From contig CAZEJU010000003.1 of assembly GCA_964512695.1 (NCBI GenBank), forward strand, positions 9,897-73,896: a stretch of DNA of 64,000 nt. Reading direction: 5' to 3'. The position numbers and the translations under genes are program-made. The notes under the pieces were generated by a model. It made no database searches. It was given only the letters and a program-made list of their open reading frames with translations, and was not told the DNA's origin. Within the stretch, counting starts at the first letter, position 1; each line of letters starts with the position of its first letter. Source of the stretch: an uncultured Gammaproteobacteria bacterium. Its GTDB lineage: Bacteria; Patescibacteriota; Microgenomatia; Levybacterales; UBA12049. Of this stretch, positions 13,272 through 46,240 are shown in pieces.

Positions 13272-13381
13272 AAATCTCAAAACTCAAATCTCAAATCGTA
13301 AAACTACAACGCAAATCGTAAATCTCTATGTATTGATTTACTGCTGTAGATTTGACATTTGAGATCTAAGATTTGAGATTC
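13272..13381. repeat. long imperfect palindrome (about 50-bp arms) built from CTCAAAT/CAAAAC-like units, in the rpoA-rplQ spacer
   Basis: Left arm aaatctcaaaactcaaatctcaaatcgtaaaactacaacgcaaatcgtaaatc. The reverse complement of the right arm gatttactgctgtagatttgacatttgagatctaagatttgagattc aligns to it with few mismatches. Confidence 0.7.
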
Positions 13382-13383
13382 AA

Positions 13384-14313
13384 TTAGGCAGGTAATGTTA
13401 TTCCTTTAGCTTGAAGCTTCTCTTCGATGACTGTTAATGACTTCCCACCCATATTCCTCATACCAACAAGTTCTTTACGAGGAGTGTTAATTAATTCTTC
13501 TACTGTCTCTATTCCACCATTTCTCAAAGAATTATAAATTCTCGTAGGTAAATCCAATTCATCGATAGTGAGTTTTAATGTCTCAGGTGCAATTGTAGAA
13601 ACTGTAGTTGTAGCTTCTCCATCGGTAGTTACAGGAGCTTTTGGATTGTAAACCATAAAGAATGACTCTGCAAGAATTTTTGCTGCATCATCAAGAGCTT
13701 TTCTAGGATTAATCGTACCATTTGTCCAAATTTTAATTACAAGCTTATCAAGATTTGTTTGTCTTCCTACACGCGTTGCTTCAACAGTATATGTAACTCT
13801 TTTTATTGGTACAAATACAGCATCTGTTGGGATTATTTCTAGACTTGAAGATTTTCGATCTTCTGCTAGCGAATAACCTAATCCTCTTTCTACTGTTAAT
13901 TCCATTTCTAATTTTGCCTTTGGACCCGTTAGTGTTCCTAAATAAAGATCTTTATTCATAACTTCAACGCCATCAGTTTCCTCTAAATCTGCAGCTGTGA
14001 CTACTTTATCTCCTTTGACAGATAGCTTGATAGTTGCTGATTCTTTAGAATCTGCAAGCTTGATACAAACTTGTTTAATATTAAGAAGAAGATCAATAAT
14101 ATTTTCTTTTAATCCTGGAAGAGTTGAGAATCGATGTTTTACTCCACTAATACGTACAGAGGTTACTGCAGCACCAGGAGTAGACGTATAAAGAACACGT
14201 CTAAGAGCATTTCCCATAGTATAACCATAACCTGGCTCAAGTGGTTCGATAACGAACTCACCATATTCTTCTGTCAGTGTAGCTTCTTTAACTTTAAAAT
14301 CTAATTCGACCAT
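13384..14313 (-). CDS. rpoA: DNA-directed RNA polymerase subunit alpha
   Basis: EFVIEPLEPGYGYTMGNALRRVLY, with a C-terminal domain. The ORF-track N-terminal 27 aa (Tyr-rich) are rejected and the start is set at MVELDFKVKE. Confidence 0.9.
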   Translation of the reverse strand: MVELDFKVKEATLTEEYGEFVIEPLEPGYGYTMGNALRRVLYTSTPGAAVTSVRISGVKHRFSTLPGLKENIIDLLLNIKQVCIKLADSKESATIKLSVKGDKVVTAADLEETDGVEVMNKDLYLGTLTGPKAKLEMELTVERGLGYSLAEDRKSSSLEIIPTDAVFVPIKRVTYTVEATRVGRQTNLDKLVIKIWTNGTINPRKALDDAAKILAESFFMVYNPKAPVTTDGEATTTVSTIAPETLKLTIDELDLPTRIYNSLRNGGIETVEELINTPRKELVGMRNMGGKSLTVIEEKLQAKGITLPA

Positions 14314-14420
14314 ATAGTAATAATAATTATAGCTAAAAGTTGGATTGTAATAAGTGTAGAATTGCTTATATTTCCACAATCTAACTTCTAGCATCTAGAC
14401 TCAACTTGTCTAGTATACCA

Positions 14421-15023
14421 TTAACGAGAATAATATTCAATAATCTGTCTTGTGTTAAATGGTAGCTCAATATCTTCTCTTTTTGGCATACGAACAAGCT
14501 TTCCTTGATTACCCTCTTTCGAAAGAAAGGAAACAACTGGCACATTTTCTTCCATAAGTTTCATAATATCGGGATTCTTCTGCATTGCATTAGAAATGCT
14601 GATTATATCATTTTCTTTTACCTGATATGATGGAATGGTCATTTTCTCTCCATTAACTGTAACATGCCCATGGGTAACCATTTGTCTAGCCATAAATCTG
14701 GATTTAGCGAATCCCAAACGATATATAACGTTATCTAAACGTGTCTCTAAAAGAGATAAAAGTAATTCTTCTGTGTCACCCTTTTGTTTAGATACACGAT
14801 CAACTAATTGTTTAAACTGTTTTTCAAGCACTCCGTAAATAGCTTTTGCTTTCTGTTTCTCTCGAAGTTGTAAACCGTACTCAGATAACCTTCTTTTTCT
14901 TTTTCTTCCATGAACACCAGGTGGGATACTAATACGACGAAGCAAACTTGCAGATGTTTTATCAAGAATATTGACTCCTTCTCTTCGTGCAATTCGATGT
15001 TTAGGACCTGTATAGTGTGCCAT
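14421..15023 (-). CDS. rpsD: 30S ribosomal protein S4
   Basis: [19 protein letters not shown]... with an S4 RNA-binding domain. Confidence 0.9.
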   Translation of the reverse strand: MAHYTGPKHRIARREGVNILDKTSASLLRRISIPPGVHGRKRKRRLSEYGLQLREKQKAKAIYGVLEKQFKQLVDRVSKQKGDTEELLLSLLETRLDNVIYRLGFAKSRFMARQMVTHGHVTVNGEKMTIPSYQVKENDIISISNAMQKNPDIMKLMEENVPVVSFLSKEGNQGKLVRMPKREDIELPFNTRQIIEYYSR

Positions 15024-15424
15024 TATACTCTCCTCCTTTTTTGTGCTCTAGGACCATTATGAGGAATCGGTGTTATATCTGTGATGGACACAATACTTAA
15101 TCCTCCTGCTTTTACTCCGCGTAATGCAGATTCTCTTCCTGAACCTGGTCCTTTAATAAAGACATCAACTGTCTTTAAACCACTTACTACTGCCTTTTTT
15201 GCAGCGTCTTCTACAGCAAGTGATGCTGCGTATGGTGTGGACTTCCTCGTACCTTTGAATCCTTTTGCTCCAGAAGAACTCCATGAGATAGCATCACCAG
15301 TATCATTCGTGATAGTAACAAGTGTATTATTAAATGTCGCGCTTATATAGACTTTTCCATGTACACCTACAGTAAGTGTACTTTTCTTTTTCGTTTGTTT
15401 TACTACTGCCGTTTTTTTAGCCAT
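15023..15424 (-). CDS. rpsK: 30S ribosomal protein S11
   Basis: [33 protein letters not shown]...RKSTPYAA. Confidence 0.9.
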
Positions 15425-15445
15425 ATATTATTAAATCACTACTTA

Positions 15446-15859
15446 CTACTTTGCTGCTTCTTTAGTTTTCTGTGCAGCTTCAATCTTTGCCATGACTTCT
15501 TTCTTAATAGCACCAATTGTAACACGTTTACCACGTTTTGTACGTGCATTCGAGCGTGTTCTTTGGCCTCGCGCTGGAAGATTCCGAGCATGACGCATTC
15601 CTTTATATGAACCAATCTCTTTTAATCTGCGTATATTTCCTTGTACTTCTGCTCGTAAATCTCCTTCAATCTTTATATGTTCTAAAGCATCCGTTATTTT
15701 TTTAACTTCAGATTCTGTTAACGTTTTTGCTCGCTTAGCACCATCAATCTCTGCTTTTGCTAAGATATTCTTTACGTTACTTCTTCCGATACCATAAAGG
15801 TACGTTAACGCAATATCAATTCTCTTTTCGTCTGGTATAGTTGCACCAAGTATTCTCAT
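15446..15859 (-). CDS. rpsM: 30S ribosomal protein S13
   Basis: MRILGATIPDEKRIDIALTYLYGIGRS. Confidence 0.9.
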   Translation of the reverse strand: MRILGATIPDEKRIDIALTYLYGIGRSNVKNILAKAEIDGAKRAKTLTESEVKKITDALEHIKIEGDLRAEVQGNIRRLKEIGSYKGMRHARNLPARGQRTRSNARTKRGKRVTIGAIKKEVMAKIEAAQKTKEAAK

Positions 15860-15866
15860 AATCTAG

Positions 15867-15980
15867 TTATCCTTGCCTCTGCTTGTGTTTTGCTGTTGTA
15901 CAGACAATATATACAACACCTTTTCGTCTAATAATCTTACAATTTTTGCATCGAGGCTTTACACTTGCTTGTACTTTCAT
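15867..15980 (-). CDS. rpmJ: 50S ribosomal protein L36 (not in ORF track; found by manual translation)
   Basis: The reverse complement translates to [37 protein letters not shown], a canonical Zn-ribbon L36. Confidence 0.85.
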
Positions 15981-15981
15981 A

Positions 15982-16200
15982 TTATTTTGTTCTCCTTACT
16001 ATTCTTCCTTTCGTCGGGTCATACTTCGTCATCTCAACCCTTACCTTGTCACCAGGTAAAATACGTATAAAATTCATTCGCATCTTTCCTGATAAATGAC
16101 AAAGAACGATAGAACCATCCTCTAGCTCAACACGAAAAAGTGTATTGGGCAAAGCTTCTTTTACAATTCCATCAACTTCAATCGATCCCTGATGAGCCAT
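15982..16200 (-). CDS. infA: translation initiation factor IF-1
   Basis: [68 protein letters not shown]. Start set at the internal Met; the upstream 27 aa of the ORF are rejected. Confidence 0.88.
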
Positions 16201-16376
16201 ATGACACGAAACACACGAATACAGCTTCTCATTCAAAAAACGTTTCGTGTTTTTCGAGAGCGAGGTGATCTTGAAGTTCAATTCTCAACTCGCGAACTAT
16301 CGCGAACAGGCAGAATAAGAAAGCGCATTCGTGTCTTTTCGCATATTATAGCAAACAAGCCTAGAAAGAGCAAACA

Positions 16377-17156
16377 TTATTTTGTCAATATTTCAGGACC
16401 ATTCTCAATTATAGCTATTGAACGCTCAAAAACCGCAGATAAACTCCCGTCAGCTGACTTTATAGTCCAATCATCCGTACCAGCATACACGACATCCGGC
16501 CTACCCATATTATAAATTACCTCAACAGCGATGGTCATTCCCTTTTCAAGTAAAGGAGTTCGTGATATAGGCTGGTCGAGAAAACCGGGCACCTCTGGCT
16601 CTTCGTGAAGCTCTTTTCCTACCCCATGACCTATTAATGTACGAACGATAGAGTAGCCACCTTCTTTTTCCACAATATCTTGTATCGCTTTAGAAATATG
16701 TCCAATACGATTCCCTAATACAGCCTGAGCAATACCTGCCTCCAAAGCCTTTTTACCAATAGCTAAAAAGAGCTGTTTTTCTTTGTAATTTTGAGTTTTG
16801 AGTTTGGAGTTTTGAGTTGAGACCAGTATGGTCTCGGCCATATCGGTATGATATCCCTGAAAATATACGCCAGCGTCTATACATACGACGTCTCTTTCTT
16901 TAAATTTATAGGGAGAAGGAACTCCATGTACAACAACATCATTCGTACAAATACACAACGTGTGATGGTATCCTGGAACTTTTTTAAACCCTGGTTCTCC
17001 ACCTTTTTCCCGGATTAACCTTTCTGCCAAAGTATCTATCTCTATTTCAGAAACTCCTGGTTTTACATTCCCAAGCACTTCCCACAATACATCTGAGAGA
17101 ATTTTTCCCCCTTGTTTCATATATTCAATTTGTTTTAAATTTTTTATATCTATCAT
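16377..17156 (-). CDS. map: type I methionine aminopeptidase
   Basis: GYHHTLCICTNDVVVHGVP, DVVCIDAGVYFQGYHTD, metal-ligand pattern. Confidence 0.9.
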   Translation of the reverse strand: MIDIKNLKQIEYMKQGGKILSDVLWEVLGNVKPGVSEIEIDTLAERLIREKGGEPGFKKVPGYHHTLCICTNDVVVHGVPSPYKFKERDVVCIDAGVYFQGYHTDMAETILVSTQNSKLKTQNYKEKQLFLAIGKKALEAGIAQAVLGNRIGHISKAIQDIVEKEGGYSIVRTLIGHGVGKELHEEPEVPGFLDQPISRTPLLEKGMTIAVEVIYNMGRPDVVYAGTDDWTIKSADGSLSAVFERSIAIIENGPEILTK

Positions 17157-17863
17157 AGTAAACCTCTCTTACGTATTTCATCTAAGATTACCTTTACTGT
17201 TTTCTCTTTAGAATAATCAGAGTTATCGATCATTATATACCCCTGACGTTCTGGATTTACTGGTAAGGGATATATTTTCCTTTCTTCATCACGACTATCT
17301 CTCTGTTTAATTTCTTCTGCTACCTCAGCTAATGAGATATTTGTCATTCCCATTGCTAACCATTGTTGTAATCGTCTTTCTGCACGAACAGACAACCGTG
17401 CAGTTAAATATAACTTAACATCTGCAGAAGGAAAAATCGCTGTTGCAGTATTTCTACCTTCTATAACAATTATAGCTCCCCTCGCTAACCGTTCATTAGA
17501 AACTGAACGGTAGATACTAATCATTTCATACTGGACTTCATTAATAGTAGCTATTTTCGAAGAAGCTGCTGATACTTCTACTGTTCTTATTTTATCGGAT
17601 ACGTCATCTTTATTTAATAAAACCCGCTTTTCTCCCAAAAAATGTATAGATATTTTTGGTAATGCTGTTATTACTGCATTTTTATCCTCAACATTTATCC
17701 CATGCTCCAAACAGTATAATGCTAAACATCTAAAAAACACTCCAGTATCAATATAAAAACCTCCCAGCTTTTCTGCAAGTAAAGGTGCAAGCGTTCCTTT
17801 ACCGGAGGCCATGGGACCATCTATAGCTATAATGAAACCTTTTCTCTCTGTCATGCCTAACAT
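17153..17863 (-). CDS. cmk: cytidylate kinase
   Basis: IIAIDGPMASGKGT P-loop and CMP-kinase architecture. Confidence 0.8.
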   Translation of the reverse strand: MLGMTERKGFIIAIDGPMASGKGTLAPLLAEKLGGFYIDTGVFFRCLALYCLEHGINVEDKNAVITALPKISIHFLGEKRVLLNKDDVSDKIRTVEVSAASSKIATINEVQYEMISIYRSVSNERLARGAIIVIEGRNTATAIFPSADVKLYLTARLSVRAERRLQQWLAMGMTNISLAEVAEEIKQRDSRDEERKIYPLPVNPERQGYIMIDNSDYSKEKTVKVILDEIRKRGLL

Positions 17864-17919
17864 GTTTCGGCATCCTCAAATAGCGGATCCTGAAACAGGT
17901 TTAGAATAACAGAGGAAAT

Positions 17920-18489
17920 CTATACACGAAGTTTACTCATAATTTCTTTATGGATTTTTTCGACAGGTTGTTCGCCATTCACTTCTATAAGTAAACGTTT
18001 TCTATGGTAATAATGAAGAACAGGTTCGGTAAATTTATGGAATAATTCAATTCTATGTCTGACTGCAGCAAGTGTTTCATCATCTCTTTGTTCAGTTTCA
18101 TGTTCTTCTCTGTAGGATAATCTCCATAACGCCTCCCGATCAGATACTTTTAAATAAATAACTTCATCTATCTTCTCGTCAAATGCTTCTGCTTGCTTCA
18201 ATGTTCTTGGAAAACCATCAAGAATATATCCTGAAATATATTCTGACCTTTTAAGATATTCCGAAACAATCTTTATAGTCCGGTTATCAGGTATTAATGT
18301 CCCCGCATGAAGAAGCTCTTTAATATAACGGCCTAATTTAGAGCGTTCTTTAGCTAGCTCACGAAAAATATGACCTGTAGAGAGATATGGAACATGAAGC
18401 TGTTTAGAAAGTAAATTACCCTGTGTGGATTTCCCTGAACCCTGGATACCGATAATTATTATTTTTAGTGTTTTACTTTCTGAAGTCAT
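17920..18489 (-). CDS. adk: adenylate kinase
   Basis: IIGIQGSGKSTQG...GHIFRE...GTLIPD; canonical position after secY. Confidence 0.85.
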   Translation of the reverse strand: MTSESKTLKIIIIGIQGSGKSTQGNLLSKQLHVPYLSTGHIFRELAKERSKLGRYIKELLHAGTLIPDNRTIKIVSEYLKRSEYISGYILDGFPRTLKQAEAFDEKIDEVIYLKVSDREALWRLSYREEHETEQRDDETLAAVRHRIELFHKFTEPVLHYYHRKRLLIEVNGEQPVEKIHKEIMSKLRV

Positions 18490-18494
18490 TGTTT

Positions 18495-19784: not shown

Positions 19785-19822
19785 GGATTGTTAGCTAATT
19801 TACGCTGATACAGCATTTTTAA

Positions 19823-20784: not shown

Positions 20785-20796
20785 ATATTTAACAAA

Positions 20797-21135: not shown

Positions 21136-21161
21136 AGGTATTTTTAACTTTCAATTCTTAT

Positions 21162-21713: not shown

Positions 21714-21808
21714 AGTAAAAAAAATATTCACTCTTAAAAATAAAACAGTAGATATAAATCGCTGCCTTCCCAGTCATTATATATACTATTCAATCTTTAA
21801 TCCCTCTA

Positions 21809-22195: not shown

Positions 22196-22205
22196 ATGTC
22201 GGTAT

Positions 22206-23029: not shown

Positions 23030-23070
23030 ATGTAAATTCTAATCCTCACTACTTGTTTGAATGTATCAAC

Positions 23071-23376: not shown

Positions 23377-23377
23377 A

Positions 23378-24650: not shown

Positions 24651-24662
24651 ATGTAATTAAAT

Positions 24663-24730
24663 TCAAAAGGCAAAATGCAAAAGTTAAAAGATACTATTTT
24701 CAACTTACACTTTTGACCTTTGACTTTTGA
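24663..24730. repeat. imperfect palindrome of TCAAAAG-type units in the rpsC-rplP spacer
   Basis: Left arm tcaaaaggcaaaatgcaaaagttaaaag. The right arm cttttgacctttgacttttgag is its approximate reverse complement. Confidence 0.65.
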
Positions 24731-24734
24731 GTTT

Positions 24735-25379
24735 TTACTTTGCTTCCGATTTGTGAATCCATACCTTTACTCCTATATATCCTTTTTTCGTTAATGACGG
24801 TGTACTAGCGAAATCAATTCTTTCACGAATTGTTGACAAAGGCACTGTACCAATCTGGATTTTTTCTCGTCGACCAATTTCTGCTCCCGCAATTCTTCCA
24901 GAGAGAAGAATACGAACACCTTTCGCTCCAGCACTCATAACACGCTCTGCAGCTTGATTCATAACTCTCTTAAAAGGTAATCTCTTTTCTAACTGATCCG
25001 CGACATTTTTCGCGACTAAATATGCATCTAAATTAGGTTCTTTAATGGGCTCAACACGAATATCAAGTTTCGGCATATGCTTAGTGTTTCTTTTCGTAAA
25101 AAAACCTGTTATTGTTTTCTTTAACTCTTCTAATCCAGTTCCTGCTCTTCCGATAACTATACCCGGACGAGCAACATACACGATAATTTTAAGATTATTA
25201 ATGGATCGCTCTAACTCTATTCTCGATACGCCTGCGCTTTTTAATTTTTCTTGAAGAAGCTTTCTTAATAAGAAATCTTCAAGAACAGTATCTTTATATT
25301 GTTTTTCATTAAACCATCTACTATTCCATTGAAAAACAGCTTTTAAACGTAATGCATGTGGATTTACTTTTTGTCCCAT
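24735..25379 (-). CDS. rpsC: 30S ribosomal protein S3
   Basis: MGQKVNPHALRLKAVFQWNSRWF, KH domain. Confidence 0.9.
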   Translation of the reverse strand: MGQKVNPHALRLKAVFQWNSRWFNEKQYKDTVLEDFLLRKLLQEKLKSAGVSRIELERSINNLKIIVYVARPGIVIGRAGTGLEELKKTITGFFTKRNTKHMPKLDIRVEPIKEPNLDAYLVAKNVADQLEKRLPFKRVMNQAAERVMSAGAKGVRILLSGRIAGAEIGRREKIQIGTVPLSTIRERIDFASTPSLTKKGYIGVKVWIHKSEAK

Positions 25380-25394
25380 AATTTTAATAGTTAC

Positions 25395-25459
25395 AAGTGA
25401 TAAGTTATGAATCCTAAGTCAATAGTGACTGCTAACTTAGGACTTGCGACTTATGACTT
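25395..25459. repeat. imperfect palindrome (about 27-bp arms) in the rplV-rpsC spacer, overlapping the rplV stop
   Basis: Left arm aagtgataagttatgaatcctaagtca. The reverse complement of the right arm is aagtcataagtcgcaagtcctaagtta. Confidence 0.65.
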
Positions 25460-25834
25460 TTTAGTATCCTCCTTTTCTTTTTTCATCTCTTTTTTTACTT
25501 CTTTTATTTCATCTAATATTACTCGTATATGACTACTTCTTTTTTTATAAGGATGAATTCTTCCACGAGTTGAAGGATGAAAACGTTTAAAAGCTTGTCC
25601 TTCAACCACTTCAATATTTGCAATATATAAGCGTGTTCTATCAAGCTTCGCATTGTGTAATGCATTTGCGACAGCACTTTCCATTGTTTTCGCTATTGCC
25701 TGTGCAGCCCGTTTTCGCATAAACTGTAATGAAACTAACGCATTCTCTAATGGTAAGTTTCGTACAGAATCTGCAACCAGTCTTACTTTTCTAGGACTAA
25801 CTCTAACGTTTCTACTTATTGCTTGTACTTGCAT
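25451..25834 (-). CDS. rplV: 50S ribosomal protein L22 with Lys/Glu-rich C-terminal extension
   Basis: VRVSPRKVRLVADSVRNLPLENALVSLQFMRKRAAQAI. Confidence 0.88.
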   Translation of the reverse strand: MQVQAISRNVRVSPRKVRLVADSVRNLPLENALVSLQFMRKRAAQAIAKTMESAVANALHNAKLDRTRLYIANIEVVEGQAFKRFHPSTRGRIHPYKKRSSHIRVILDEIKEVKKEMKKEKEDTKKS

Positions 25835-27173: not shown

Positions 27174-28016
27174 TTATTCTTTTTCTTGTTTCTTTTCGTT
27201 ATTAAGGCTTTTTTCCATCTCATTAAGTGCGCTTTTCATAAAGAAGATAGCATCATGATTTAATACTTCATACGCATGTAATTGACGAGCATAATCATAG
27301 GTTACACCTTCGATATTTCTTACAGCACGGACTACATTAGCATGTTTTACATCAAGGACTAATAAAACTTTATTTTTTTTCTTCATATCTTGAACTTTCT
27401 CTAATAATGCAGCCATTTCTTTGGTTTTAGGCGCAATTTTTTCTAAACCATCAAAAACTTTTACTTTCCCTCTTCTTGCTTTATCACTTAATACAGTAAA
27501 GAGAGCAATCTTTTTCATTTTTTTAGGCATGTCTAGACTGAAATCTCTTGGTTTTGGCCCATGAGCGATACCTCCATGCACAAATATAGGAGCACGTACT
27601 CCACCATGGCGGGCTCTTCCTGTACCTTTTTGGCGATAGATTTTTCTTGTTGATCCATCGACTTCACCTCGAGTTTTTGTAGAGGCAGACCCAGCACGTT
27701 GATTAGCTAAATAAACTCTAGCCGCTTGAGCCACCAACTGAGGGTTACTCTTTACACCAAAAATCTTCCCCGGAAGCGCCAAAGATTCTACAATCTTTCC
27801 AGTTAGATCATACACATCTGCATGTAACGCATCTTTCTTCTGTCCAATTGTACCTTTCTTCATAGACTGATCTACCGATTTTTGCTTTGCACTAGCTGAC
27901 ACTTCAGTTACTGCATCAGTTTTTTTCGTAGTTGTTTTCTTAACAGCTACTTTTACTGCTGTTTTCTCTACACTTTCGACTTTTGATTTTTGACTTTTAA
28001 TTTTTTTCTCTGCCAT
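27174..28016 (-). CDS. rplD: 50S ribosomal protein L4 with about 55-aa Lys-rich N-terminal extension
   Basis: Core LHADVYDLTGKIV...GTGRARHG. Start MAEKKIK overlaps the rplC stop by 3 nt. The N-terminal extension contains a TTTTGA-type DNA repeat. Confidence 0.85.
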   Translation of the reverse strand: MAEKKIKSQKSKVESVEKTAVKVAVKKTTTKKTDAVTEVSASAKQKSVDQSMKKGTIGQKKDALHADVYDLTGKIVESLALPGKIFGVKSNPQLVAQAARVYLANQRAGSASTKTRGEVDGSTRKIYRQKGTGRARHGGVRAPIFVHGGIAHGPKPRDFSLDMPKKMKKIALFTVLSDKARRGKVKVFDGLEKIAPKTKEMAALLEKVQDMKKKNKVLLVLDVKHANVVRAVRNIEGVTYDYARQLHAYEVLNHDAIFFMKSALNEMEKSLNNEKKQEKE

Positions 28017-28815: not shown

Positions 28816-28875
28816 ATTTCCTATTGTTTTCTAAAACTTTTTTTGTATTTTGCATACCTTCTGCCTACAAAAAAA

Positions 28876-28894
28876 GATAGCCCATTCGGCTATC
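28876..28894 (-). terminator. hairpin followed by T7 run on the minus strand, inside the rpsJ-rplC spacer (attenuator-like)
   Basis: gatagcc-cattc-ggctatc preceded by aaaaa on the + strand, so on the minus strand the hairpin is followed by TTTTTTT. Confidence 0.5.
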
Positions 28895-29133
28895 TTCCTA
28901 GTACTGTTACTACTTATGAACCCGAATTTAGGCTGATCGCAACCTCCTCATTATAATATTGTTGGGCATTAAAGTTTTAAACATGTAAGCTTTACAATAA
29001 ATACAAATTTTCTTACTGTTATCTCTAAATTTAAGTTTTCGTAATAATTCGCATTAGAGAATAATGAAATACTCAACATCCGAATTAATACGAAATAGTT
29101 ATATGTGTGAGATTATTTGAGCAGATGTATAAC

Positions 29134-29442: not shown

Positions 29443-29490
29443 ATGTCTATATTATTAACTCCAACAAACTGTTAAAGAGCACTGTCCAAT

Positions 29491-29518
29491 AAAAAATAGG
29501 CCTGAGGCCTATTTTTTT
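29491..29518. terminator. intrinsic terminator hairpin (A6-stem-loop-T7) at the 3' end of tuf, bidirectional in form
   Basis: aaaaaataggcc-tga-ggcctattttttt overlapping the tuf stop codon. Confidence 0.65.
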
Positions 29519-37129: not shown

Positions 37130-37182
37130 AACGTGGCTTAGTATAGAAGGTTACAAAGAAAGGTTCAACTGTAAAATACATT

Positions 37183-37710: not shown

Positions 37711-37753
37711 TATTTATAATCTTTACAAGTACAGATCATGAAGTCAAGAGAAG

Positions 37754-38341: not shown

Positions 38342-38549
38342 ATGGCTAAGTATAAACCATTTTCCTAGAAGAGAGAAGTATTTATTAACGAATTAAGGTA
38401 ATTAAAAATTAAATTCAATAAAAAGCTTAAAACCATAATTGATCCGACAATCAATCCCATGTTGCTCCCAAACTCAAAGTAATTAATGTTACTAAATAAG
38501 GCAAACAAATACATTTATAGTAAAGATAAAAAAGTAGCTACCAACAAAT

Positions 38550-40664
38550 TTATGCAGCGATGCGGCCGGTAAAGGTGGATTTAGCAAGCATTGCTTGGAC
38601 AATATTGTTTGGAACTTCTTCATAATGAGAAGGTTCCATATAATATGATGCACGACCTTGAGACATAGAACGTAACTGTGTAGCATAGCCGGATAACTCA
38701 GCAAGTGGAACTGATGCGAGAATAATAGTAGCATTTCCACGTTCTTCAGTACCCATAATCTGTGCACGTTTTGCTGAAAGGTCTCCGATAACATCTCCCA
38801 TAAACTCTGATGGAGTCGTAACTTCTACCTTCATAATAGGCTCAAGTAACGACATTTGCGCTTTCTTCGCTGCTGCTTGCATAGCTTGAGATGCAGCTAT
38901 TTTAAATGCTTGTTCAGAAGAATCGACATCATGATATGAACCGTCATAACACGTAACTTTAATATCGACTAATGGGTAGCCGAGCATAACACCATTATCC
39001 AGCATTTCTGTAACTCCTTTTTGCACAGCTTTTACGAATTCAGCAGGAATTGCGCCTCCCTTAATGGCATCGACAAATTCAAATCCTTCCCCACGTGGCT
39101 TTGGTTCAACCCGAAGCATACAGTGTCCATACTGTCCACGTCCTCCTGATTGGCGAATATATTTACCTTCTGCTTCCGCTTGAGAGGCAAAGGTTTCTTT
39201 ATAGGCAACTTGAGGGGCACCGACGTTTGCTAAAACATTAAATTCTCTTTTCATACGATCTACCATAATTTCAAGCTGAAGCTCGCCAATACCCGAGATA
39301 ATTGTCTGCCCAGTCTCATGATTGGTTTTCACTCGAAATGTCGGATCTTCTTCCATAAGACGTTTCAATGCAAGACCTAGTTTTTCCTGATCTGATTTCG
39401 TTTGAGGTTCTATAGCGAGGGATATAACAGGCTCTGGAAAGGAAATCTGCTCAAGGATAATTGGCTTCGCCTCATCACATAAGGTGTCACCTGTGATAGT
39501 ATCTTTTAAACCCACAATGGCAACAATTTCTCCTGCGTATGCTTCTTTTATCTCTTCTCGCTCATTTGCATGCATTAAGAGTAATCGGCCAACACGTTCC
39601 CGTATATTTTTTGAACTATTATAAATATATGATCCTGACTGAATAACACCAGAATAAACACGGAAATATGTTAATTTACCAACATGGGGATCATTTTGAA
39701 TTTTAAATGCAAGACCAGAATATGCTTCTTCTGGAATGAGCTTACGGACTTCTTCTTGCTCTGTATTCGGATTTTTACCTTTTACTTCACCCAAATCAAC
39801 AGGTGAGGGAAGGTAGTCGATTACAGCATCGAGGAGAGGCTGAACGCCTTTATTCCGGAGGGAAGTACCCGCATAAATCGGAACAAGCTTATAAGCAATT
39901 ACTGCAGCTCGCAGTGCTTTTTTTAATTCCTCAACTGTAGGTTCTTCACCACCAAGATATTTCTCTAGCATCTGATCATCAGTTTCTGATATCTTTTCGA
40001 TGAGTTTATTACGATATTCCTCAACCTGAGCTTTCATGTGTTCAGGGATTTCATCAGTGATATCAAATTTTGCACCTAATTCTTCAGAATTCCAAATGAT
40101 TACTTTTCGAGTTAATAAATCTACATTACCTACGTAGGTGTTTTCTGATCCGATTGGTAATACCATAATCGCTGGATTAGCACCTAATCGTTTTTCAATA
40201 CTTCCTACTGTTTTGAGGAAATCTGCACCGAGTTTATCCATCTTATTTACAAAACAAATACGCGGCACTCTATATTTATCTGCCTGTCGCCATACAGTTT
40301 CAGACTGTGACTGGACACCTTCTTCAGCATCAAGAACGGTAATCCCCCCATCAAGAACACGTAATGAACGTTCGACTTCTGCAGTAAAATCTACATGACC
40401 TGGAGTATCAATAATATTAATACGATGGTCTTTCCAAAATGTAGTTGTTGCAGCGGAGACAATTGTAATACCCCGTTCTCTTTCCTGCTCCATCCAGTCC
40501 ATTTGGGTATTACCCTCATCAATATCTCCAATTTTATAAGTCCGACCAGTATAGAAAAGAATACGCTCTGTGGTAGTCGTTTTCCCTGCGTCGATATGGG
40601 CGATAATTCCGATATTTCGGATCTTATCAAGAGGATACATTCGTGATTTTGCTACATCTGCCAT
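38550..40664 (-). CDS. fusA: elongation factor G
   Basis: [31 protein letters not shown], full five-domain length. Confidence 0.97.
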
Positions 40665-40670
40665 AAAAAA

Positions 40671-40749
40671 AGTTAAAAATTCAAACTACAAAGTTCAAAA
40701 CTACAAGAAAATTAAGAACTTTTCATTTTTACCTTTGAACTTTTAACTC
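40671..40749. repeat. imperfect palindrome (AGTTAAAA..TTCAAA units) immediately upstream of fusA
   Basis: Left arm agttaaaaattcaaactacaaagttcaaaactac. The reverse complement of the right arm is agttaaaagttcaaaggtaaaaatgaaaa. Confidence 0.6.
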
Positions 40750-40797
40750 TAAAAGTATAGCACACATTTCTTGTTTATTCTAGTAGGTTAGATGACA

Positions 40798-41661
40798 CTA
40801 CACACTTAAGATTGCAAGGAAAACAATTCCTGAAAGCGTAGTTAGAAGACCTACAATCTGCTGTCTTGTTATAGACTCTTTTAAAAATAAAAAGGCAAGG
40901 AGGACGAACATAGTTGGGGAAGAGCTTGCAATAGGAGTAACAATGGCTGTAAGTCCTGTGCCCAATGCAGCGTTAAGACTGAAATCGCTAATTCCTGTAA
41001 GAAAACCAAAAAGAAAAACGTTCCGAAACACCTCAGGGTCTTTAGGTATCGGTAACGGAAGACCTCGAAGTTTCGTATAGAGATAAATAACCGGAAAAAC
41101 AATCATTGAGATGAACCCAGGCCAAAACCAGCCAATTTCTTTTATAGGTATTTTTAAGAATGTAAAGTATATTCCCCAACAAAGCATTGTCGTAAATGCA
41201 AGCATTACACTTTTATCGAATTTTACCTTCTTTTCGCGTAGATCACGAAGATTAAATGTACAGAGAAATACTCCTATGAGGATAAATAAGATTGCAAAGA
41301 CTTGTAACTCTGTAATTTTCTCATGAAAGAAAATGACCGATAACGGTATTACTATAACTGAATAAGAAGCAGAAATCGTTGCGGTAATAGATGCAGCACT
41401 TGCTTTTAATGCTTCAGTATAAGTAACGATCCCTGTGATTAAAATAACACCAAGAAAAAGTGTAAAAAGAAACATTGAAGTTGACAGAGTATGCAATTCT
41501 GATAAAGCAAAAGGAATATAGATAAGAGAAAGTAGTACCCTAATACATAACATCCAAAAAGTGGTCGAATAACCTCCCATTTTACGAGTCGCCAAGGTGC
41601 CAAACATATCGCCTGTACTCCATCCAAAGTAGGGAATAAGAGCTAATAAAATAGGTATCAT
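40798..41661 (-). CDS. EamA/DMT-superfamily transporter (10 TM)
   Basis: Two-fold repeat of five hydrophobic helices, about 290 aa. Confidence 0.55.
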   Translation of the reverse strand: MIPILLALIPYFGWSTGDMFGTLATRKMGGYSTTFWMLCIRVLLSLIYIPFALSELHTLSTSMFLFTLFLGVILITGIVTYTEALKASAASITATISASYSVIVIPLSVIFFHEKITELQVFAILFILIGVFLCTFNLRDLREKKVKFDKSVMLAFTTMLCWGIYFTFLKIPIKEIGWFWPGFISMIVFPVIYLYTKLRGLPLPIPKDPEVFRNVFLFGFLTGISDFSLNAALGTGLTAIVTPIASSSPTMFVLLAFLFLKESITRQQIVGLLTTLSGIVFLAILSV

Positions 41662-41900
41662 GGGTGCATTGTAACAAAATCATTCTCAGTTTAAAATAAA
41701 ATAAAAAGAGCTTTACAAACTCCTCAAAAACACCTATTCTTTTCCGCTTATAAATGGGATATACCTAACGTAGCTTTGCATGGAAAAATCAACTTTCTTT
41801 TTCTGGAAGCTCTAGGTTCGAGAAGATATACCAATTATTGCAAAAACAAATCGCAGTGGTATAGACTGGAAGTAGGTCCGTTCATTCGGACTTATCTGTT

Positions 41901-42440
41901 ATGGCAAAAGATATCCTGTCCATCAATTTGCTAGATGATAAACAAAAAAGCTTTACTGACACTATTCTCGACTGGGCAATTTATATCGGCCGTTTACTTG
42001 TAATTATTACTGAAGCAGTAGCCTTATTCGTTTTTATTAATCGCTTTACGCTGGATAGAAAGCTTATCGATCTTCATGATGAAATTAAGAAGAATCAATC
42101 CTTTATAGGATATATGCAAAGTCGTGAAGAAATATACAGAGGAATACATGAAAAACTACAAACGAACTTTATCAGCAGTACAGACAACGATGAAAGAATA
42201 ATCCTCTTTGAAGAACTTACTAGTAATGTGAATCCTCAGTTAAGTATTCTTAGCTTCTCAGTAAATCCTTCTTCTTTAACCATTGCGGTACAAGCACGTT
42301 CTATACAAGCGCTTTCTGATTTCCATGAAAAAGTAAAACAACACCCATCCATCGCTTCAATTACCGTCGATAAAATAGAAAATAAGACAGCAAACGCCAT
42401 AATTCTTGTTTCCTATACGGCAAAGCTAAAAGCTAAATAA
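41901..42440 (+). CDS. PilN-like type IV pilus assembly protein
   Basis: N-terminal INLL(D) motif followed by a single TM and an about 120-aa periplasmic domain, of typical PilN length. Confidence 0.5.
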   Translation: MAKDILSINLLDDKQKSFTDTILDWAIYIGRLLVIITEAVALFVFINRFTLDRKLIDLHDEIKKNQSFIGYMQSREEIYRGIHEKLQTNFISSTDNDERIILFEELTSNVNPQLSILSFSVNPSSLTIAVQARSIQALSDFHEKVKQHPSIASITVDKIENKTANAIILVSYTAKLKAK

Positions 42441-42442
42441 TT

Positions 42443-43057
42443 ATGATATTTTTTAAACAAACTTTTTTAAAGGATTTCGCAAAAGAGAGGTATATGGCAA
42501 TTGTACGTGCGTATCCTCGACTCCAGGAGGATAAAACACAACGATATATTCTACTAACGTTGACGTTCCTAGCTTTATCATTTTTAGGAATATTAGCTAT
42601 AAATCCAACACTAAAAACTATTACAGAGTTAAATAAGAAACTCGAGGATAGTGAATTTGTTAATCAGGCCCTTAAAACAAAACTTGCTAATCTCTCTTCA
42701 TTAAATAGTCAATATGAACGTATGTCTACTGATATACCTCTTATTGAAGCAGCTGTACCTAGTTCTGCTCAAGCGCCTTTCCTACTGGGACAATTACGAA
42801 CACTGGCAAAGACTACTGATGTAACAATTACCAGTCTTCAAACATACCAAATCAACATGACACAACAGAAAATTACTCCACCTAGAACTGTTAATTTTAT
42901 CTTTACCTTAAGTATAGAGGGTGAAAAAAGTAACTTAGTAGATTTTCTTCATGCTTTAAATTCATTTGATAGAACTGTCGTTATTGAGTCATTACATTTT
43001 ATAAGTGAGGAAGAACAACGCTTAACAATTCGCGCAAAAGCATTTTTCATACCATGA
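42443..43057 (+). CDS. PilO-like type IV pilus assembly protein
   Basis: Short cytoplasmic N-terminus, one TM, a coiled-coil, then a C-terminal domain ending LVDFLHALNSFDRTVVIESLHF...RLTIRAKAFF, typical of PilO. Start overlaps the PilN-like stop. Confidence 0.45.
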   Translation: MIFFKQTFLKDFAKERYMAIVRAYPRLQEDKTQRYILLTLTFLALSFLGILAINPTLKTITELNKKLEDSEFVNQALKTKLANLSSLNSQYERMSTDIPLIEAAVPSSAQAPFLLGQLRTLAKTTDVTITSLQTYQINMTQQKITPPRTVNFIFTLSIEGEKSNLVDFLHALNSFDRTVVIESLHFISEEEQRLTIRAKAFFIP

Positions 43058-43410
43058 AAAAAAGGAAATATACAATTCAAAAAGATCTGACGATCTTGTC
43101 ATTTTCTCTGTTTGTAGTAGTTACACTATGGATCGCATTTACCATACACGGAATCTATGTCACAAGCACTATTAGTGATACATTGCAAATACAGATAGTT
43201 CCTATTAAAGGTGTTTTTGATGAATCCAGTATAGAAATTATCAAAAACAGAACTCCAATAATTCCTGATTATTCCGCAAGTGTATCAGCAAATACACTCC
43301 GTATTAATGCTTTACCTATTGATCAACCGCAACCAACGTCCGAAGTAACTCTTACACCAACTGATGTATTTTTACCGAATAGTACATCTAGCGCAGAGCC
43401 ATCCTTATGA
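43054..43410 (+). CDS. small single-TM protein (PilP-like position)
   Basis: Translationally coupled (4-nt overlaps on both sides); no motif. Confidence 0.35.
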   Translation: MKKRKYTIQKDLTILSFSLFVVVTLWIAFTIHGIYVTSTISDTLQIQIVPIKGVFDESSIEIIKNRTPIIPDYSASVSANTLRINALPIDQPQPTSEVTLTPTDVFLPNSTSSAEPSL

Positions 43411-44870
43411 AACCAACAATCTTGAATAAAAAAATACCATCATATCTTGGATTTCTATCACTAATTTTAATGATACCCATAATTGCGTGGATAGTCGAAA
43501 ATAATACTGTCGTACCCGTCAGAGCAAACCCGGATCATACACCACAAGATGTACAGATTAGTAACATTACTGACAACTCTTTTACTATCTCTTATACAAC
43601 AATTGAAGCTACTATCGGTTCTGTCTCATATGGACCGACAGACAAACTGGGTCAAATAGCATTTGATATTCGAGATACCGCTCGTGGAAAACCATTACCT
43701 CACCGAGTCCATTATTTCGACATAAAAGGTCTTCAACCTAATACAACGTATTACTTCATATTACTGTCTGGTAATACGACGTATAAAAAAGACAATAAGC
43801 CATACGCTATAACCACAGGGCCAACTCTCTCCCAGACACAAACTAGTAGAAAAATCGCAGGAAACGTTTTGCTACCAAACGGCAGCTATCCTGGAGAGAC
43901 AGTTGTATATGCAATAAGTAGTACTTCACAACTTCTTTCAAAACTGGTAGAAGTAGACGGATCTTTCTCCATAGATAATTCATCCCTACGAACTAGTACG
44001 CTTGATTCGTATGCGGAAGAACAAGAAACTGCAGAGTTTCAAATACGTTTAGTAAACAGTGATATGCAAACGTACATGAATGTTTTATCGAAAGATCTAG
44101 ATTCACTCCCTACGGTTACTCTGTCGAAAAACTATGATTTTACTTATGAATTACTTCCTACTAAATCACTGGACAACAACGTAAATCTCTTAGATACCGC
44201 AGAGCTTTTCCCAGAATATTCGACAAATACTACGTTTAGCCAAACTCCTCAGATTATAGTGCCAAAGAAAGATCAAGCATTTGATGATCTCCAACCGGAA
44301 TTCCGTGGATCTGCTCCCCCTTCTAAAAATATCGAAATTAGTTTTGATACAGCGACTACAAAAGTAACTGTAAGAACTACTGCAACAGGAACATGGTTAT
44401 ATAGACCAAAACAGCCAATGACAGCAGGTAATCATACGATTATCGTCAGCATGAAAGATATATCAGGCATGACGCTAACAACGTCTCAAACCTTTGCTAT
44501 TCATGCTATAGGTAGCCAGTTTTTTGCTCCATCACCAACTGTCTCTCCTACAGCAATACCATCTCCAAGTCCATCACTAAACCCATCACCTATAGCATCG
44601 CCTTCTGTATCACCTGCTCAACCATCAATATCGCCCTCACCTTCGATATCCGTAAGTCCCACAGTATCACCTATACTGTCACCCACGGAAATTCTTATAC
44701 CTTCACCAACGTTAATTCCTAGCCCTACACAAATAACAGTATCGCTTCCACCAGCATCTCCCGTACCTAGTCTGACGCCTACTGGTAGTGGTACTGCAGT
44801 CCTCACGTTTGGCTTTGCGCTATTTGCTACGATTACAGGTGTTGTGTTATTCTTTTTAACTCATACATAA
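43407..44870 (+). CDS. large cell-surface protein: N-terminal TM/signal, FN3-like domain, C-terminal Ser/Pro/Thr-rich repeat and C-terminal TM anchor
   Basis: VQISNITDNSFTISYTT...PNTTYYFILLSG (FN3-like). SPTVSPTAIPSPSPSLNPSPIASPSVSPAQPSISPSPSISVSPTVSPILSPTEILIPSPTLIPSPTQ repeat. Terminal hydrophobic helix. Confidence 0.55.
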   Translation: MKPTILNKKIPSYLGFLSLILMIPIIAWIVENNTVVPVRANPDHTPQDVQISNITDNSFTISYTTIEATIGSVSYGPTDKLGQIAFDIRDTARGKPLPHRVHYFDIKGLQPNTTYYFILLSGNTTYKKDNKPYAITTGPTLSQTQTSRKIAGNVLLPNGSYPGETVVYAISSTSQLLSKLVEVDGSFSIDNSSLRTSTLDSYAEEQETAEFQIRLVNSDMQTYMNVLSKDLDSLPTVTLSKNYDFTYELLPTKSLDNNVNLLDTAELFPEYSTNTTFSQTPQIIVPKKDQAFDDLQPEFRGSAPPSKNIEISFDTATTKVTVRTTATGTWLYRPKQPMTAGNHTIIVSMKDISGMTLTTSQTFAIHAIGSQFFAPSPTVSPTAIPSPSPSLNPSPIASPSVSPAQPSISPSPSISVSPTVSPILSPTEILIPSPTLIPSPTQITVSLPPASPVPSLTPTGSGTAVLTFGFALFATITGVVLFFLTHT

Positions 44871-44874
44871 ATCT

Positions 44875-46146
44875 ATGAATATAGGTATTATTGGAGCTGG
44901 ATTTACCGGACTATCAGCAGGATATCAACTTACAAAAAGAGGCCATTCAGTTACCATCTTTGAGAAAGATCTTCAACCCGGAGGACTAGCAATTGGTTAT
45001 AAGGAGAAAGAATGGGAATGGTCACTTGAGAAACATTACCACCATTGGTTCACAAACGATAAATTTATTTTAAACCTTGCGAGAGAAATTGGTCATAAAG
45101 TATTCATCCGTCGTCCAGAAACATCAGCATATATTGATGATAATATTTACCAACTTGATTCTCCATTAAAAGTATTACAGTTTCCACAACTTTCAATTGT
45201 TGATCGTGTTCGAATGGGAGTTGCATTAGCAGCTCTCCGGTATAATCCTTTTTGGCAGCCATTAGAAAAAATATATGCAGTTCCTGTATTAAGGGAAACA
45301 ATGGGAGAAAAGTCCTATAAAATGCTTTGGGAACCCCAACTTAAAAATAAGTTTGGTACGTATTTTAAAAATGTATCACTTGCATGGTTTTGGGCACGTA
45401 TAAAAAAACGAACATCATCACTTGCGTATCCGGAAGGTGGATTTTTACATTTTGCCGAACACCTTATCGATGTAATAAAAGAAAATGGAGGAAACGTAGT
45501 ATTTAATGCAGAGATTTCGGAATTAAGGGATGATGGACAAAAAACAACACTTATGAAAGAAAAAAAATTGCATACCTTCGATAAAGTACTCGTAACACTT
45601 CCGTCTGTTTTTTTTATAAATATTACTCCTCAACTTCCTAAAACTTATACTGATAAACTGACAAGACTAAAAGGTTTAGGTGCAACGAATCTTGTTTTAC
45701 GTCTTAACAAACCTTTTTTCAAAACGAAAACATACTGGCTAAGCGTTTGTGATACAACATCACCTATTATGGCAATCGTAGAACATACAAATTTTATGGA
45801 TAGAAAATATTACAATAATGAACATATCGTGTATTTAGGAAACTATGTTGGAACGACTCATCCATACTTTTCCATGACTGAAGAAGAAATGCTCGCACAC
45901 TTTCATCCATTTTTAAAGAAAATAAATCCAAAATACAAAGATTCGTTAATCAGTATGAAGCTTTTTAAAGCACCGTTTGCACAACCTATTATTCCTACTA
46001 ACTATTCTCGATTGATTCCCCCTATGGCGACTCCTTTAAAAAATGTCTTTCTTGCAAATATTGAACAAGTGTATCCTTGGGATAGAGGAACAAACTATGC
46101 AGTAGAGTTAGGTGAGAAAGTAGCAAAGCTTATTGTAAACGAATGA
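44875..46146 (+). CDS. FAD/NAD(P)-binding oxidoreductase (amine-oxidase / phytoene-desaturase / UDP-galactopyranose-mutase-like fold)
   Basis: N-terminal Rossmann motif IGIIGAGFTGLSAGYQL...VTIFEKDLQPGGLA. Confidence 0.6.
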   Translation: MNIGIIGAGFTGLSAGYQLTKRGHSVTIFEKDLQPGGLAIGYKEKEWEWSLEKHYHHWFTNDKFILNLAREIGHKVFIRRPETSAYIDDNIYQLDSPLKVLQFPQLSIVDRVRMGVALAALRYNPFWQPLEKIYAVPVLRETMGEKSYKMLWEPQLKNKFGTYFKNVSLAWFWARIKKRTSSLAYPEGGFLHFAEHLIDVIKENGGNVVFNAEISELRDDGQKTTLMKEKKLHTFDKVLVTLPSVFFINITPQLPKTYTDKLTRLKGLGATNLVLRLNKPFFKTKTYWLSVCDTTSPIMAIVEHTNFMDRKYYNNEHIVYLGNYVGTTHPYFSMTEEEMLAHFHPFLKKINPKYKDSLISMKLFKAPFAQPIIPTNYSRLIPPMATPLKNVFLANIEQVYPWDRGTNYAVELGEKVAKLIVNE

Positions 46147-46240
46147 ATTTTCCATTTTCCAAGTTTCATTTTCCAACAAATCAAGATTTGAAATTACTAA
46201 ATAATCAATGGCAAAATGAAAAATGACAAATGGAAAATTT
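46146..46240. repeat. imperfect palindrome (TTTTCCA/ATGGAAAA-type arms) spanning the annotated start of the first GT-C gene
   Basis: Left arm aattttccattttccaagtttcattttccaa. The reverse complement of the right arm is aaattttccatttgtcatttttcattttgcca. Confidence 0.6.

Follow-up and report, generated by a model that had tools for sequence, protein, structure and literature searches.

What fills the normally tight gene junctions of the ribosomal-protein (r-protein) operons in a 64,000-nt stretch of the Levybacterales contig CAZEJU010000003.1 (assembly GCA_964512695.1, positions 9,897 to 73,896), and how did it come to be there? A first-pass annotation of this stretch, hereafter the window, had pointed to five long imperfect palindromes, which it took to be locally generated by repeat expansion followed by an inversion-duplication. 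We report that all five are members of a family of palindromic heptanucleotide repeats that extends across Levybacteria and some other Microgenomates. Each arm of these elements is an A/T-rich 7-nt tandem array, usually with the A-rich array first, the complementary T-rich array second and a non-repeat loop between them. The feature that unites the five loci is this 7-nt period of the arms, not their sequence, and it had been overlooked in the earlier annotation.

Inverted repeats are present at all five loci, with arms of 23-40 nt that are 70-85% complementary, in a window of 35% GC. We refer to them as W1 to W5:

13268..13383, minus strand: W1, hairpin that fills the rpoA/rplQ spacer, unit AAATCTC / GAGATTT.
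13273-13308 / 13345-13380, minus strand: arms of W1, 36 nt, 81% complementary.
24651..24741, minus strand: W2, hairpin of the rpsC/rplP spacer, unit GTCAAAA / CTTTTGA.
24666-24688 / 24719-24741, minus strand: arms of W2, 23 nt, 78% complementary.
25380..25467, minus strand: W3, rplV/rpsC hairpin, units AAGTCNN / NNGACTT.
25387-25426 / 25428-25467, minus strand: arms of W3, 40 nt, 70% complementary.
40665..40750, minus strand: W4, hairpin of the fusA 5' leader, 7-8-nt units AGTTAAAAG / TTCAAAGG.
40668-40696 / 40716-40744, minus strand: arms of W4, 29 nt, 76% complementary.
46146..46239, plus strand: W5, hairpin separating the genes of an FAD-oxidoreductase and a PMT_2 glycosyltransferase, units ATTTTCC / GGAAAAT with the T-rich arm leading.
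46146-46172 / 46213-46239, plus strand: arms of W5, 27 nt, 85% complementary.

The surrounding genes had been named correctly. On the minus strand, NCBIfam and Pfam back rplQ, rpoA, rplP, rpsC, rplV and fusA as well as the genes for L13, S9, cmk, adk, IF-1, L3, L4 and L6; on the plus strand, the FAD-oxidoreductase gene is followed by two PMT_2 (GT-C-type) glycosyltransferase genes, the 'GT-C' gene of the earlier description being a member of the PMT_2 family. The spacers that hold W1 to W5 measure 116, 84, 71, 133 and 83 nt. Since the median spacer at most orthologous junctions of relatives is 4 nt or less, the elements are insertions into tight junctions. When each region was folded on the mRNA strand, trimmed to the element and compared with 300 dinucleotide shuffles, all five beat the shuffles: 0-1 of 300 folded as well, with sense-strand z-scores of -8.3 (W1), -2.7 (W2), -4.8 (W3), -4.3 (W4) and -3.0 (W5). 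The complementarity of the arms thus exceeds what AT-rich low-complexity sequence yields.

Tandem Repeats Finder gives the arms of W1, W2 and W5 a period of 7 on both sides and W4 one of 15 nt (7+8); the arms of W3 also have period 7 in our own scan. There is no consensus common to the five copies, as had been noted before. On the mRNA strand, W1 is a hairpin followed by a U7 tract (13268-13274) and then by the AUG of rplQ, and W4 runs into a U7 tract (40665-40671) and the AUG of fusA, neither start having a Shine-Dalgarno (SD) sequence. Both are sense-biased, folding at -44.2 kcal/mol sense vs -32.5 antisense (W1) and -21.5 vs -11.1 (W4). W2, W3 and W5 have neither a U-tract nor a strand bias, their antisense z-scores being -3.5, -3.3 and -3.3 (for W3, -21.8 kcal/mol sense vs -22.8 antisense). 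No SD precedes rplP or rpsC, the rplV stop codon (25451-25453) lies inside the 5' arm of W3, and the 3' arm of W5 holds ATGs in all three frames, the start of the open reading frame (ORF) at 46230 among them.

To place these elements, we compared the window with loci of relatives chosen by SecY from a species-representative genome collection (86% to 58% identity), nearly all of them metagenome-assembled genomes of Candidatus Levybacteria or Microgenomates, which places the window organism among the Patescibacteria of the Candidate Phyla Radiation. A first set comprised the window and 80 related loci (1.46 Mb), and 63 non-redundant loci from metagenomes brought the total to 144 r-protein loci (2.2 Mb). 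L-numbers below denote loci or contigs of these relatives. A metagenome search for nearer kin of the window organism had a best match of only 76% SecY identity. Inverted repeats were collected with our own finder (arms of at least 18 nt, complementarity of at least 70%, loop of at most 70 nt), which also scored the periodicity of the arms. Within the first set, period 7 was the best period of the arms in 99 inverted repeats vs 0 in dinucleotide shuffles, and period-7 tandem arrays numbered 225 vs 8 in block shuffles. The full set holds 154 heptamer hairpins. All but one (153) are intergenic, and they occupy upwards of 20 junctions, with rpoA/rplQ (38), infA/rpmJ-rpsM (20), map/infA (14), rpsC/rplP (12), rplE/rpsZ (11) and rplV/rpsC (10) the best populated. 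The elements fit their sites closely: pairing begins a median of 3 nt after the stop codon and ends a median of 7 nt before the start codon. In 61 kb of non-ribosomal context from three relatives, one element only was present. The A-rich arm leads in 108 elements; in 28, among them W5, the T-rich arm does.

These counts bear on whether the palindromes are anything at all. That AT-rich low-complexity sequence pairs by chance, or that the assembly is at fault, would accord with the moderate z-scores of W2 and W5 and with the whole-spacer folds of W4 and W5, which are not significant before trimming to the element. Against it stand the empty shuffles, the recurrence of the same architecture in well over 100 contigs from many samples and projects, the intact flanking ORFs, and a separate Logan assembly contig (L001) that is base-identical over W2 and W3, although it may share the window's sample. 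We consider this explanation almost certainly wrong. No Rfam family matched anywhere in the window at the gathering threshold, and an E-value threshold applied to 12.5-31 kb returned nothing relevant; sub-threshold matches at the palindromes, to plant miRNA-precursor models and at W1 only, were judged spurious. A scan for consensus promoters and terminators was uninformative: shuffled sequence gave more sites, and the long AU-rich hairpins were missed.

How do such arrays arise and change? Close relatives differ in how many units they carry: an element that is otherwise 96% identical in L007 and L011 is longer in L011 by two AAGTCCT units, both in the same arm, and this unit family, that of W3, recurs at three junctions in L007/L011. 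Slipped-strand mispairing would be the likely cause. Arrays often stand in phase with the last heptamer and the stop codon of the upstream gene. Elements come and go as quickly as strains diverge. The rplE/rpsZ spacer is 142 nt in L086 vs 1 nt in L087, two loci with 98.7% identical secY DNA, and L065 and L152 (96.6% identical in secY) differ at eight junctions or more. W5 is missing at the orthologous junction in L162, L163 and L164, where the spacers are 16, 37 and 6 nt. In L002 (SecY 86%), hairpins occupy rpsC/rplP and rpoA/rplQ as in the window, with unrelated units.

The same arrays also occur unpaired, within genes or across gene ends, and three such arrays lie in the window:

16789..16818, minus strand: CTCAAAA x 4 array, in frame in the methionine aminopeptidase gene (map), encoding STQNSKLKTQN.
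27974..28005, minus strand: GTCAAAA / ATCAAAA array, in frame in the N-terminal extension of L4 (rplD).
12296..12323, minus strand: short solitary array TTAAAAG / TTAAAAT / TCAAAAA over the rplM stop codon, at the rplM/rpsI junction.

The MetAP array is a product of the same repeat process as the hairpin arms. Across the loci compared, 75 of 213 arrays lie in frame within genes, at MetAP around residue 113 (27 loci), the L4 N-terminal extension and the C-termini of L17 and L22. They encode K/S/Q/N-rich 7-residue repeats, and one site takes different units in different genomes. All but two of the 75 (73/75) are A-rich on the sense strand, which we read as the stop-free orientation. The rplM/rpsI array is A-rich and has no inverted partner; other genomes carry full hairpins at this junction, and the array may be the seed or the remnant of an element. 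Elsewhere in the window, an ATAATTC x 5 period-7 array lies at 60122-60156 on the plus strand, inside ORF 59783-60847, where it is translated as NNIIHNSQFLMHNS.

Observations of this kind favour a purely local origin, in which heptamers slip in place, an inverted duplication by template switch supplies the second arm and nothing is copied between sites. Arrays that run on in phase from the upstream 3' end and stop codon (such as GAAAAATAA-AAAATAA-AATATAA in L027 and AAAGACTTAAGGACTAAAAGACTT in L152), unit sequences that vary widely across loci, and in-frame solitary arrays that show heptamers expanding in situ all agree with it. What it fails to explain is that near-identical elements, together with their loops and flanking modules, recur within and between genomes. 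In L113, one ~100-nt cassette stands at three consecutive junctions, rpsS/rplV, rplV/rpsC and rpsC/rplP, its copies being 99% and 91% identical. It runs TATGA, 5' array, loop, 3' array, ACTGAAAGGAGT, ATG, and it carries its own SD, as ACTGAAAGGAGT lies directly before the ATG. In L044, the same element flanks rpsC on both sides (96% over 79 nt). Near-identical copies also occur within L088 (98.5% over 68 nt), L103 (93.5% over 62 nt) and L039, where the elements at rplV/rpsC and rplM/rpsI, 13 kb apart, are 94% identical over 67 nt in a match that reaches ~24 nt into the end of the upstream ORF. All five of these 20-kb loci, and L011 as well, hold two or three near-identical copies each.

Between genomes, L028 and L032 share an element with 97% identity over 61-69 nt, loop included, vs 91% in secY, which sits at infA/rpmJ in one of them and at rpsS/rplV in the other, and the elements of L039 at rplB/rpsS and of L085 at rplV/rpsC share 93% over 86 of 89 nt; L027 and L035 form a third such pair. 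Copies start right after the stop codon, and their flanks are unrelated. Units at different sites lie within one mismatch of each other in 22.5% of comparisons within a genome vs 15.9% between genomes, a difference that 0/300 permutations reach. Because near-identical full-length elements, loops included, sit at non-orthologous junctions, we conclude that whole elements are copied. The proposal of local generation thus falls as the sole account, while expansion is involved: differences in unit number and arrays in phase with the upstream stop codon bear out that part. The one insertion checked arm by arm, at rpsS/rplV in L152, is not a near-perfect palindrome, and this speaks against a simple, fresh inversion-duplication. 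We hold a purely local origin to be improbable.

A second question is whether the hairpins act as RNA. Here, the rpoA/rplQ class stands apart from the rest. Of its hairpins, 30 have the better fold on the sense strand and 8 on the antisense strand (p = 1.6e-4), with 114 G-U pairs sense vs 67 antisense; at all other junctions the corresponding numbers are 60 and 53 (p = 0.69) and 222 vs 224. When all hairpins are pooled, G-U vs A-C mismatches in ungapped arms (108 vs 89) do not differ significantly, and the signal emerges only with rpoA/rplQ separated. In the 8-nt tail behind the hairpin, the mean number of T is 5.5 at rpoA/rplQ, 5.3 in the three map/infA tails and 2.4-3.6 at the remaining r-protein-to-r-protein junctions measured; U-tracts go with the site and not with the element. 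Where rpoA/rplQ has no heptamer hairpin (L019, L028, L056 and L072), an ordinary GC hairpin with a T-run takes its place, and in more distant Microgenomates the rpoA/rplQ spacers are 0-2 nt. The rpoA/rplQ hairpins of L006, L007, L015, L030, L051 and L060 are built of TCAGTTN / NAACTGA units. We also tried the 3' arm plus T-run as a leaderless promoter (TAAGAT-T6-ATG), which suits some short type-A copies and does not fit W1, W4 or other unit types. A further palindrome, richer in GC (TTATGACCC...GGGTCATA, ~45 nt), lies just 3' of the rpoA/rplQ hairpin in L017, L026, L052 and L060 and may be another dispersed element.

The fusA leader has a comparable layout, headed by a promoter:

40754..40764, minus strand: putative fusA promoter of the extended -10 type, TGTGCTATACT on the sense strand; its end lies ~4 nt before W4 begins to pair.

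An identical or near-identical TGnTATACT box occupies the same position upstream of fusA in three relatives obtained through EF-G homologues (L162, L163 and L164). In 4/4 fusA leaders, a hairpin comes within ~10 nt of this box and leads into a U-tract and the ATG. By the energy test, the window leader lacks an SD, and none was seen at normal spacing in the other three. The hairpin itself is a small GC stem in L163 and L164 (TTCCCGGGAGGGAA, CCCGAAAGGG), a type-A (AAATCTC) heptamer hairpin in L162 (EF-G 96% identical) and a heptamer hairpin of other units in the window. On this evidence, the lineage retains at rpoA/rplQ and fusA an arrangement of hairpin, U-tract and SD-less AUG in which heptamer palindromes and ordinary hairpins are interchangeable. 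In the window (38550-41661) and in L162-L164, fusA lies apart from rpsL/rpsG and tuf, with its own predicted promoter; it stands head-to-head with a pilN/pilO-like operon in relatives, and in the window an EamA transporter gene lies between them.

The arrangement recurs at map/infA, where a conserved TGnTATAAT box precedes the hairpins at a position that matches the known B. subtilis infA promoter (PMC4495994). In the window, an extended -10 box common to relatives (TTTGCTATAAT) lies in the map/infA spacer upstream of infA, at ~16345-16355 on the minus strand. The IF-1 domain begins at residue 34 of the 99-aa ORF, so the true infA start is probably downstream, and a 26-nt inverted repeat (16209-16234 / 16313-16338) would then sit in a long infA leader.

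SD sequences are scarce in general: 25% of 79 window genes have one at -4 kcal/mol or stronger. Among genes that follow a hairpin, 25% have an SD vs 62% at tight junctions, and 17% vs 1% have a T6 run. The possibility that the hairpin brings an SD of the upstream gene next to the AUG was set aside as a general explanation on inspection of W3 and W2, the spacing being an estimated ~23 nt at W3 and no SD-like sequence lying near the rpsC 3' end at W2. A TATAAT-like box ends 6-7 nt before the start codon in 12 of 31 first genes, vs 7.0 +/- 2.4 expected; examples are the starts at 2760(+), 5428(-), 38341(-), 41661(-), 52537(-) and 61404(-). This pattern suggests that leaderless mRNAs may be widespread in the window genome.

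Could every member of the family, then, be a selected RNA element, an RNase III or RNase E site or an attenuator that uncouples the cistrons of r-protein operons? Each element does lie in a predicted transcribed junction or leader, whose spacer it fills but for a few nucleotides, RNase III could act on the predicted stems of 20-45 bp, W1 and W4 are sense-biased, and the family is enriched in translation-gene operons. But outside rpoA/rplQ the hairpins as a group have no sense preference, many hairpins are weak (-4 to -15 kcal/mol per 70-115 nt), presence and absence vary among genomes that are 97-99% identical in secY, and most junctions in most genomes do with spacers of 4 nt or less. As an account of all members, this reading seems unlikely to us. 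Of the functional options offered in the first-pass annotation, an attenuator-like role suits W1 and W4 only, in view of their sense bias, their U-tracts and the ordinary hairpin with U-tract at these sites in relatives; kinship with repetitive extragenic palindromic (REP) elements or MITEs (miniature inverted-repeat transposable elements) suits W2, W3 and W5, which have no strand bias or U-tract and whose like turn over or are absent in close relatives.

The reading we favour, and judge probable though well short of certain, is that these are slippage-prone, copy-spreading palindromic heptamer repeats of a REP/MITE-like kind, with W2, W3 and W5 as passengers and W1 and W4 filling a terminator-like or leader-hairpin slot. 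Units would be gained and lost by slipped-strand mispairing. Whole elements, some of which begin close to a stop codon on the left and bring an SD on the right, are copied between operon junctions, and the route would be recombination or hairpin-targeted transposition. Presumably co-transcribed with the operon, each would form a long AU-rich hairpin that fills the spacer from stop to start, and most copies, here W2, W3 and W5, would be tolerated as selfish or near-neutral passengers. W1 and W4, by this reading, sit where the lineage needs a hairpin and U-tract directly before an SD-less AUG, so that the heptamer palindrome would do the job of an ordinary GC hairpin. At rpoA/rplQ it might serve as an intrinsic-terminator-like attenuator or a protector of RNA ends, and in the fusA leader as a 5' stem-loop whose U-tract is a landing site for the ribosome. 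The role may be one of three: to attenuate or terminate upstream transcription, to protect RNA ends (as a 5'-terminal stem for fusA and infA, or a 3' barrier for rpoA), or to offer a U-rich strand for SD-independent ribosome loading.

Several observations weigh against this reading. On the side of mobility, the five elements of the 64-kb window are not copies of one another. Alignments of filled and empty sites show neither target-site duplication nor microhomology at the borders, terminal inverted repeats distinct from the arms were not found, and no transposase or reverse transcriptase appeared among ~40 window proteins scanned, about half of the window genes; as no enzyme, separate terminal repeats or target-site duplication was found, it is the copies themselves that speak for mobility. 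Gene starts in relatives were placed by a tblastn heuristic. On the side of function, W1-type hairpins are homologous in at least 12 relatives and keep the same order of variant units, with a mean spacer identity of 73%, far above the 38% at which four-fold degenerate sites of six flanking genes are saturated. This conservation favours a role for W1, but aligning repeats may have inflated the 73%. The hairpin is mostly deleted in L152, a close relative of L065, and so is not indispensable. In an alignment of 12 W1 sequences 91% of cells are paired, and covariation (RNAalifold, pair counts) is not significant, with 4 double changes vs 2.0 in shuffled alignments (54/500 shuffles reach this), the sequences being too conserved for such a signal. 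In contrast to classical terminators, the U-tracts are preceded by AU-rich stems, and since a strong terminator before the essential rplQ or fusA would be harmful, any termination would have to be partial, or the role one in stability or translation.

Literature comparisons help to delimit the family, although full-text searches gave no account of such elements in the Candidate Phyla Radiation (CPR). REP hairpins can protect upstream mRNA or attenuate transcription. Like the REP, BIME and REPIN elements of enterobacteria and Pseudomonas, (PMC3733652), the Levybacteria elements are short, multi-copy, imperfect extragenic palindromes between presumably co-transcribed genes, are predicted to form mRNA hairpins and vary among strains. 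They differ in that their arms are heptamer arrays of free sequence, with no GTAG/CGTC head or family-wide consensus, in being longer (60-130 nt) and very AU-rich, and in that no RAYT was found among the ~40 window proteins scanned. MITEs such as Correia/NEMIS in Neisseria and ERIC in Yersinia are likewise non-autonomous, dispersed, variable in presence, situated in operon junctions and transcribed into hairpins, some with expression signals. Presence/absence polymorphism and copies at unrelated sites are also seen in the Levybacteria elements, whereas separate terminal inverted repeats, target-site duplication and a parental insertion sequence were not found for them; MITEs in turn have no internal 7-nt periodicity or unit slippage. 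Rickettsia palindromic elements are known to insert in frame in essential protein genes, as the arrays in MetAP, L4, L17 and L22 do here, but the Levybacteria in-gene copies are single non-palindromic arrays and not whole palindromes.

With terminators and attenuators, the likeness is limited to W1 (U7, -44 kcal/mol) and W4 (U7, -21.5 kcal/mol), in which a hairpin precedes a U-tract; W2, W3 and W5 have none, and the Levybacteria stems are 25-45 bp long, imperfect and AU-rich where an intrinsic terminator has a short GC-rich stem, with an SD-less AUG following at once. Another parallel is the E. coli rnd leader, in which a terminator-like hairpin and U8 upstream of the start were reportedly found by Zhang and Deutscher in 1992 to be needed for translation; W1 and W4 also have a hairpin and U-run ahead of the start codon.

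As repeats, the elements resemble heptanucleotide simple sequence repeats (SSRs; STRR/LSSR), with at least three head-to-tail 7-nt units beyond chance and whole-unit changes in copy number between relatives. Heptamers are the commonest long SSR unit in prokaryotes according to a paper citing Mrazek 2007, and the TTTTGAA repeats of Nostoc and other cyanobacteria are tandem 7-nt intergenic units (bioRxiv 10.1101/2022.06.06.494920). Among the nearest cases are the TAACTGA repeats of Beggiatoaceae, cyanobacteria and Bacteroidetes, which lie in tandem just upstream of SD-less starts, those of fusA, L3 and S4 included (PMC4679880); intergenic 7-nt units before SD-less starts, in r-protein operons and upstream of fusA, are what the two have in common. 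Such previously described heptamer repeats are direct arrays of one fixed unit, with 169 direct sets and a single inverted one of TAACTGA counted by MacGregor (PMC4679880), while the intergenic rule in Levybacteria is an inverted pair, of many units and in a CPR host. The TAACTGA unit is in no window element, and the TCAGTTA / TAACTGA units of relatives come as inverted pairs.

This parallel gives some weight to a further explanation, already put forward for the TAACTGA repeats of Beggiatoaceae, that the arrays are tandem sites for a ~7-nt single-strand binder (a cold-shock protein, S1 or a CsrA-like protein), the hairpin being a switch that the protein would melt for antitermination or translational control. 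The 7-nt period is strict though the unit sequence is free, the arrays lie directly upstream of SD-less starts, and the TCAGTTA / TAACTGA units occur at rpoA/rplQ in some relatives. Even within one genome, however, the units are very diverse and hard to fit to one sequence-specific protein, and the same arrays in frame inside proteins point to a mutational process; we regard this explanation as very unlikely. Copy-spreading, slippage-prone palindromic repeats remain the better description. The Levybacteria elements combine traits of heptamer SSRs and of extragenic palindromes and lack the defining traits of each single family, from which they are set apart because they have no fixed unit, GTAG/CGTC head, terminal inverted repeats or target-site duplication.

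The window contains a candidate sixth member and two other structured spacers:

21732..21808, minus strand: W6, rpsH/rplF spacer (77 nt), 24-nt arms with weak 7-nt periodicity.
29443-29516, minus strand: tuf/rpsJ, ordinary GC-rich terminator-like hairpin with T-run (AATAGGCCTCAGGCCTATTTTTT).
28816-29133: rpsJ/rplC non-coding spacer, 318 nt.

The arms of W6 (21734-21757 / 21777-21800; period-7 score 0.56) are followed by a U-rich tail and a GTG start, and its fold is -17.6 kcal/mol sense vs -8.1 antisense (z -3.9). The tuf/rpsJ hairpin indicates that this genome uses conventional hairpins too. The rpsJ/rplC spacer has unusually stable local folds at ~29001-29120 and no Rfam match; its median length in relatives is 246 nt, and it may hold a structure of the S10-operon leader type.

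In this family, heptanucleotide microsatellites and extragenic palindromes, each a known phenomenon, come together in the same element. Few bacterial gene arrays are as compact and conserved as the r-protein operons, and inserts of 60-140 nt together with in-frame arrays show an unexpected plasticity in tiny CPR genomes. The disrupted junctions are natural experiments in SD-poor translation, and the solutions seen are an insert folded away, a carried SD or a U-tract. The rpoA/rplQ and fusA sites offer a testable case of a selfish repeat taking over the role of a terminator or leader hairpin. In practice, the hypervariable sites could act as strain markers for Levybacteria, and start and stop codons inside arrays are a warning for gene callers. 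A bolder reading, which we think rather doubtful, is that the elements are a previously undescribed, self-propagating 'junction cassette' of CPR bacteria. Such a cassette would consist of a stop-proximal array, loop and complementary array plus its own SD or U-tract. It would spread among translation-machinery operons by a mechanism aimed at hairpins or junctions, with no known enzyme, and could replace ordinary terminator or leader hairpins in function, and its 7-nt periodic arms might be read by a heptamer-binding RNA chaperone of Csp- or S1-like kind. Such reading of the arms would amount to a global, tunable control of r-protein genes, rpoA, infA and fusA in organisms that largely do without SD sequences.

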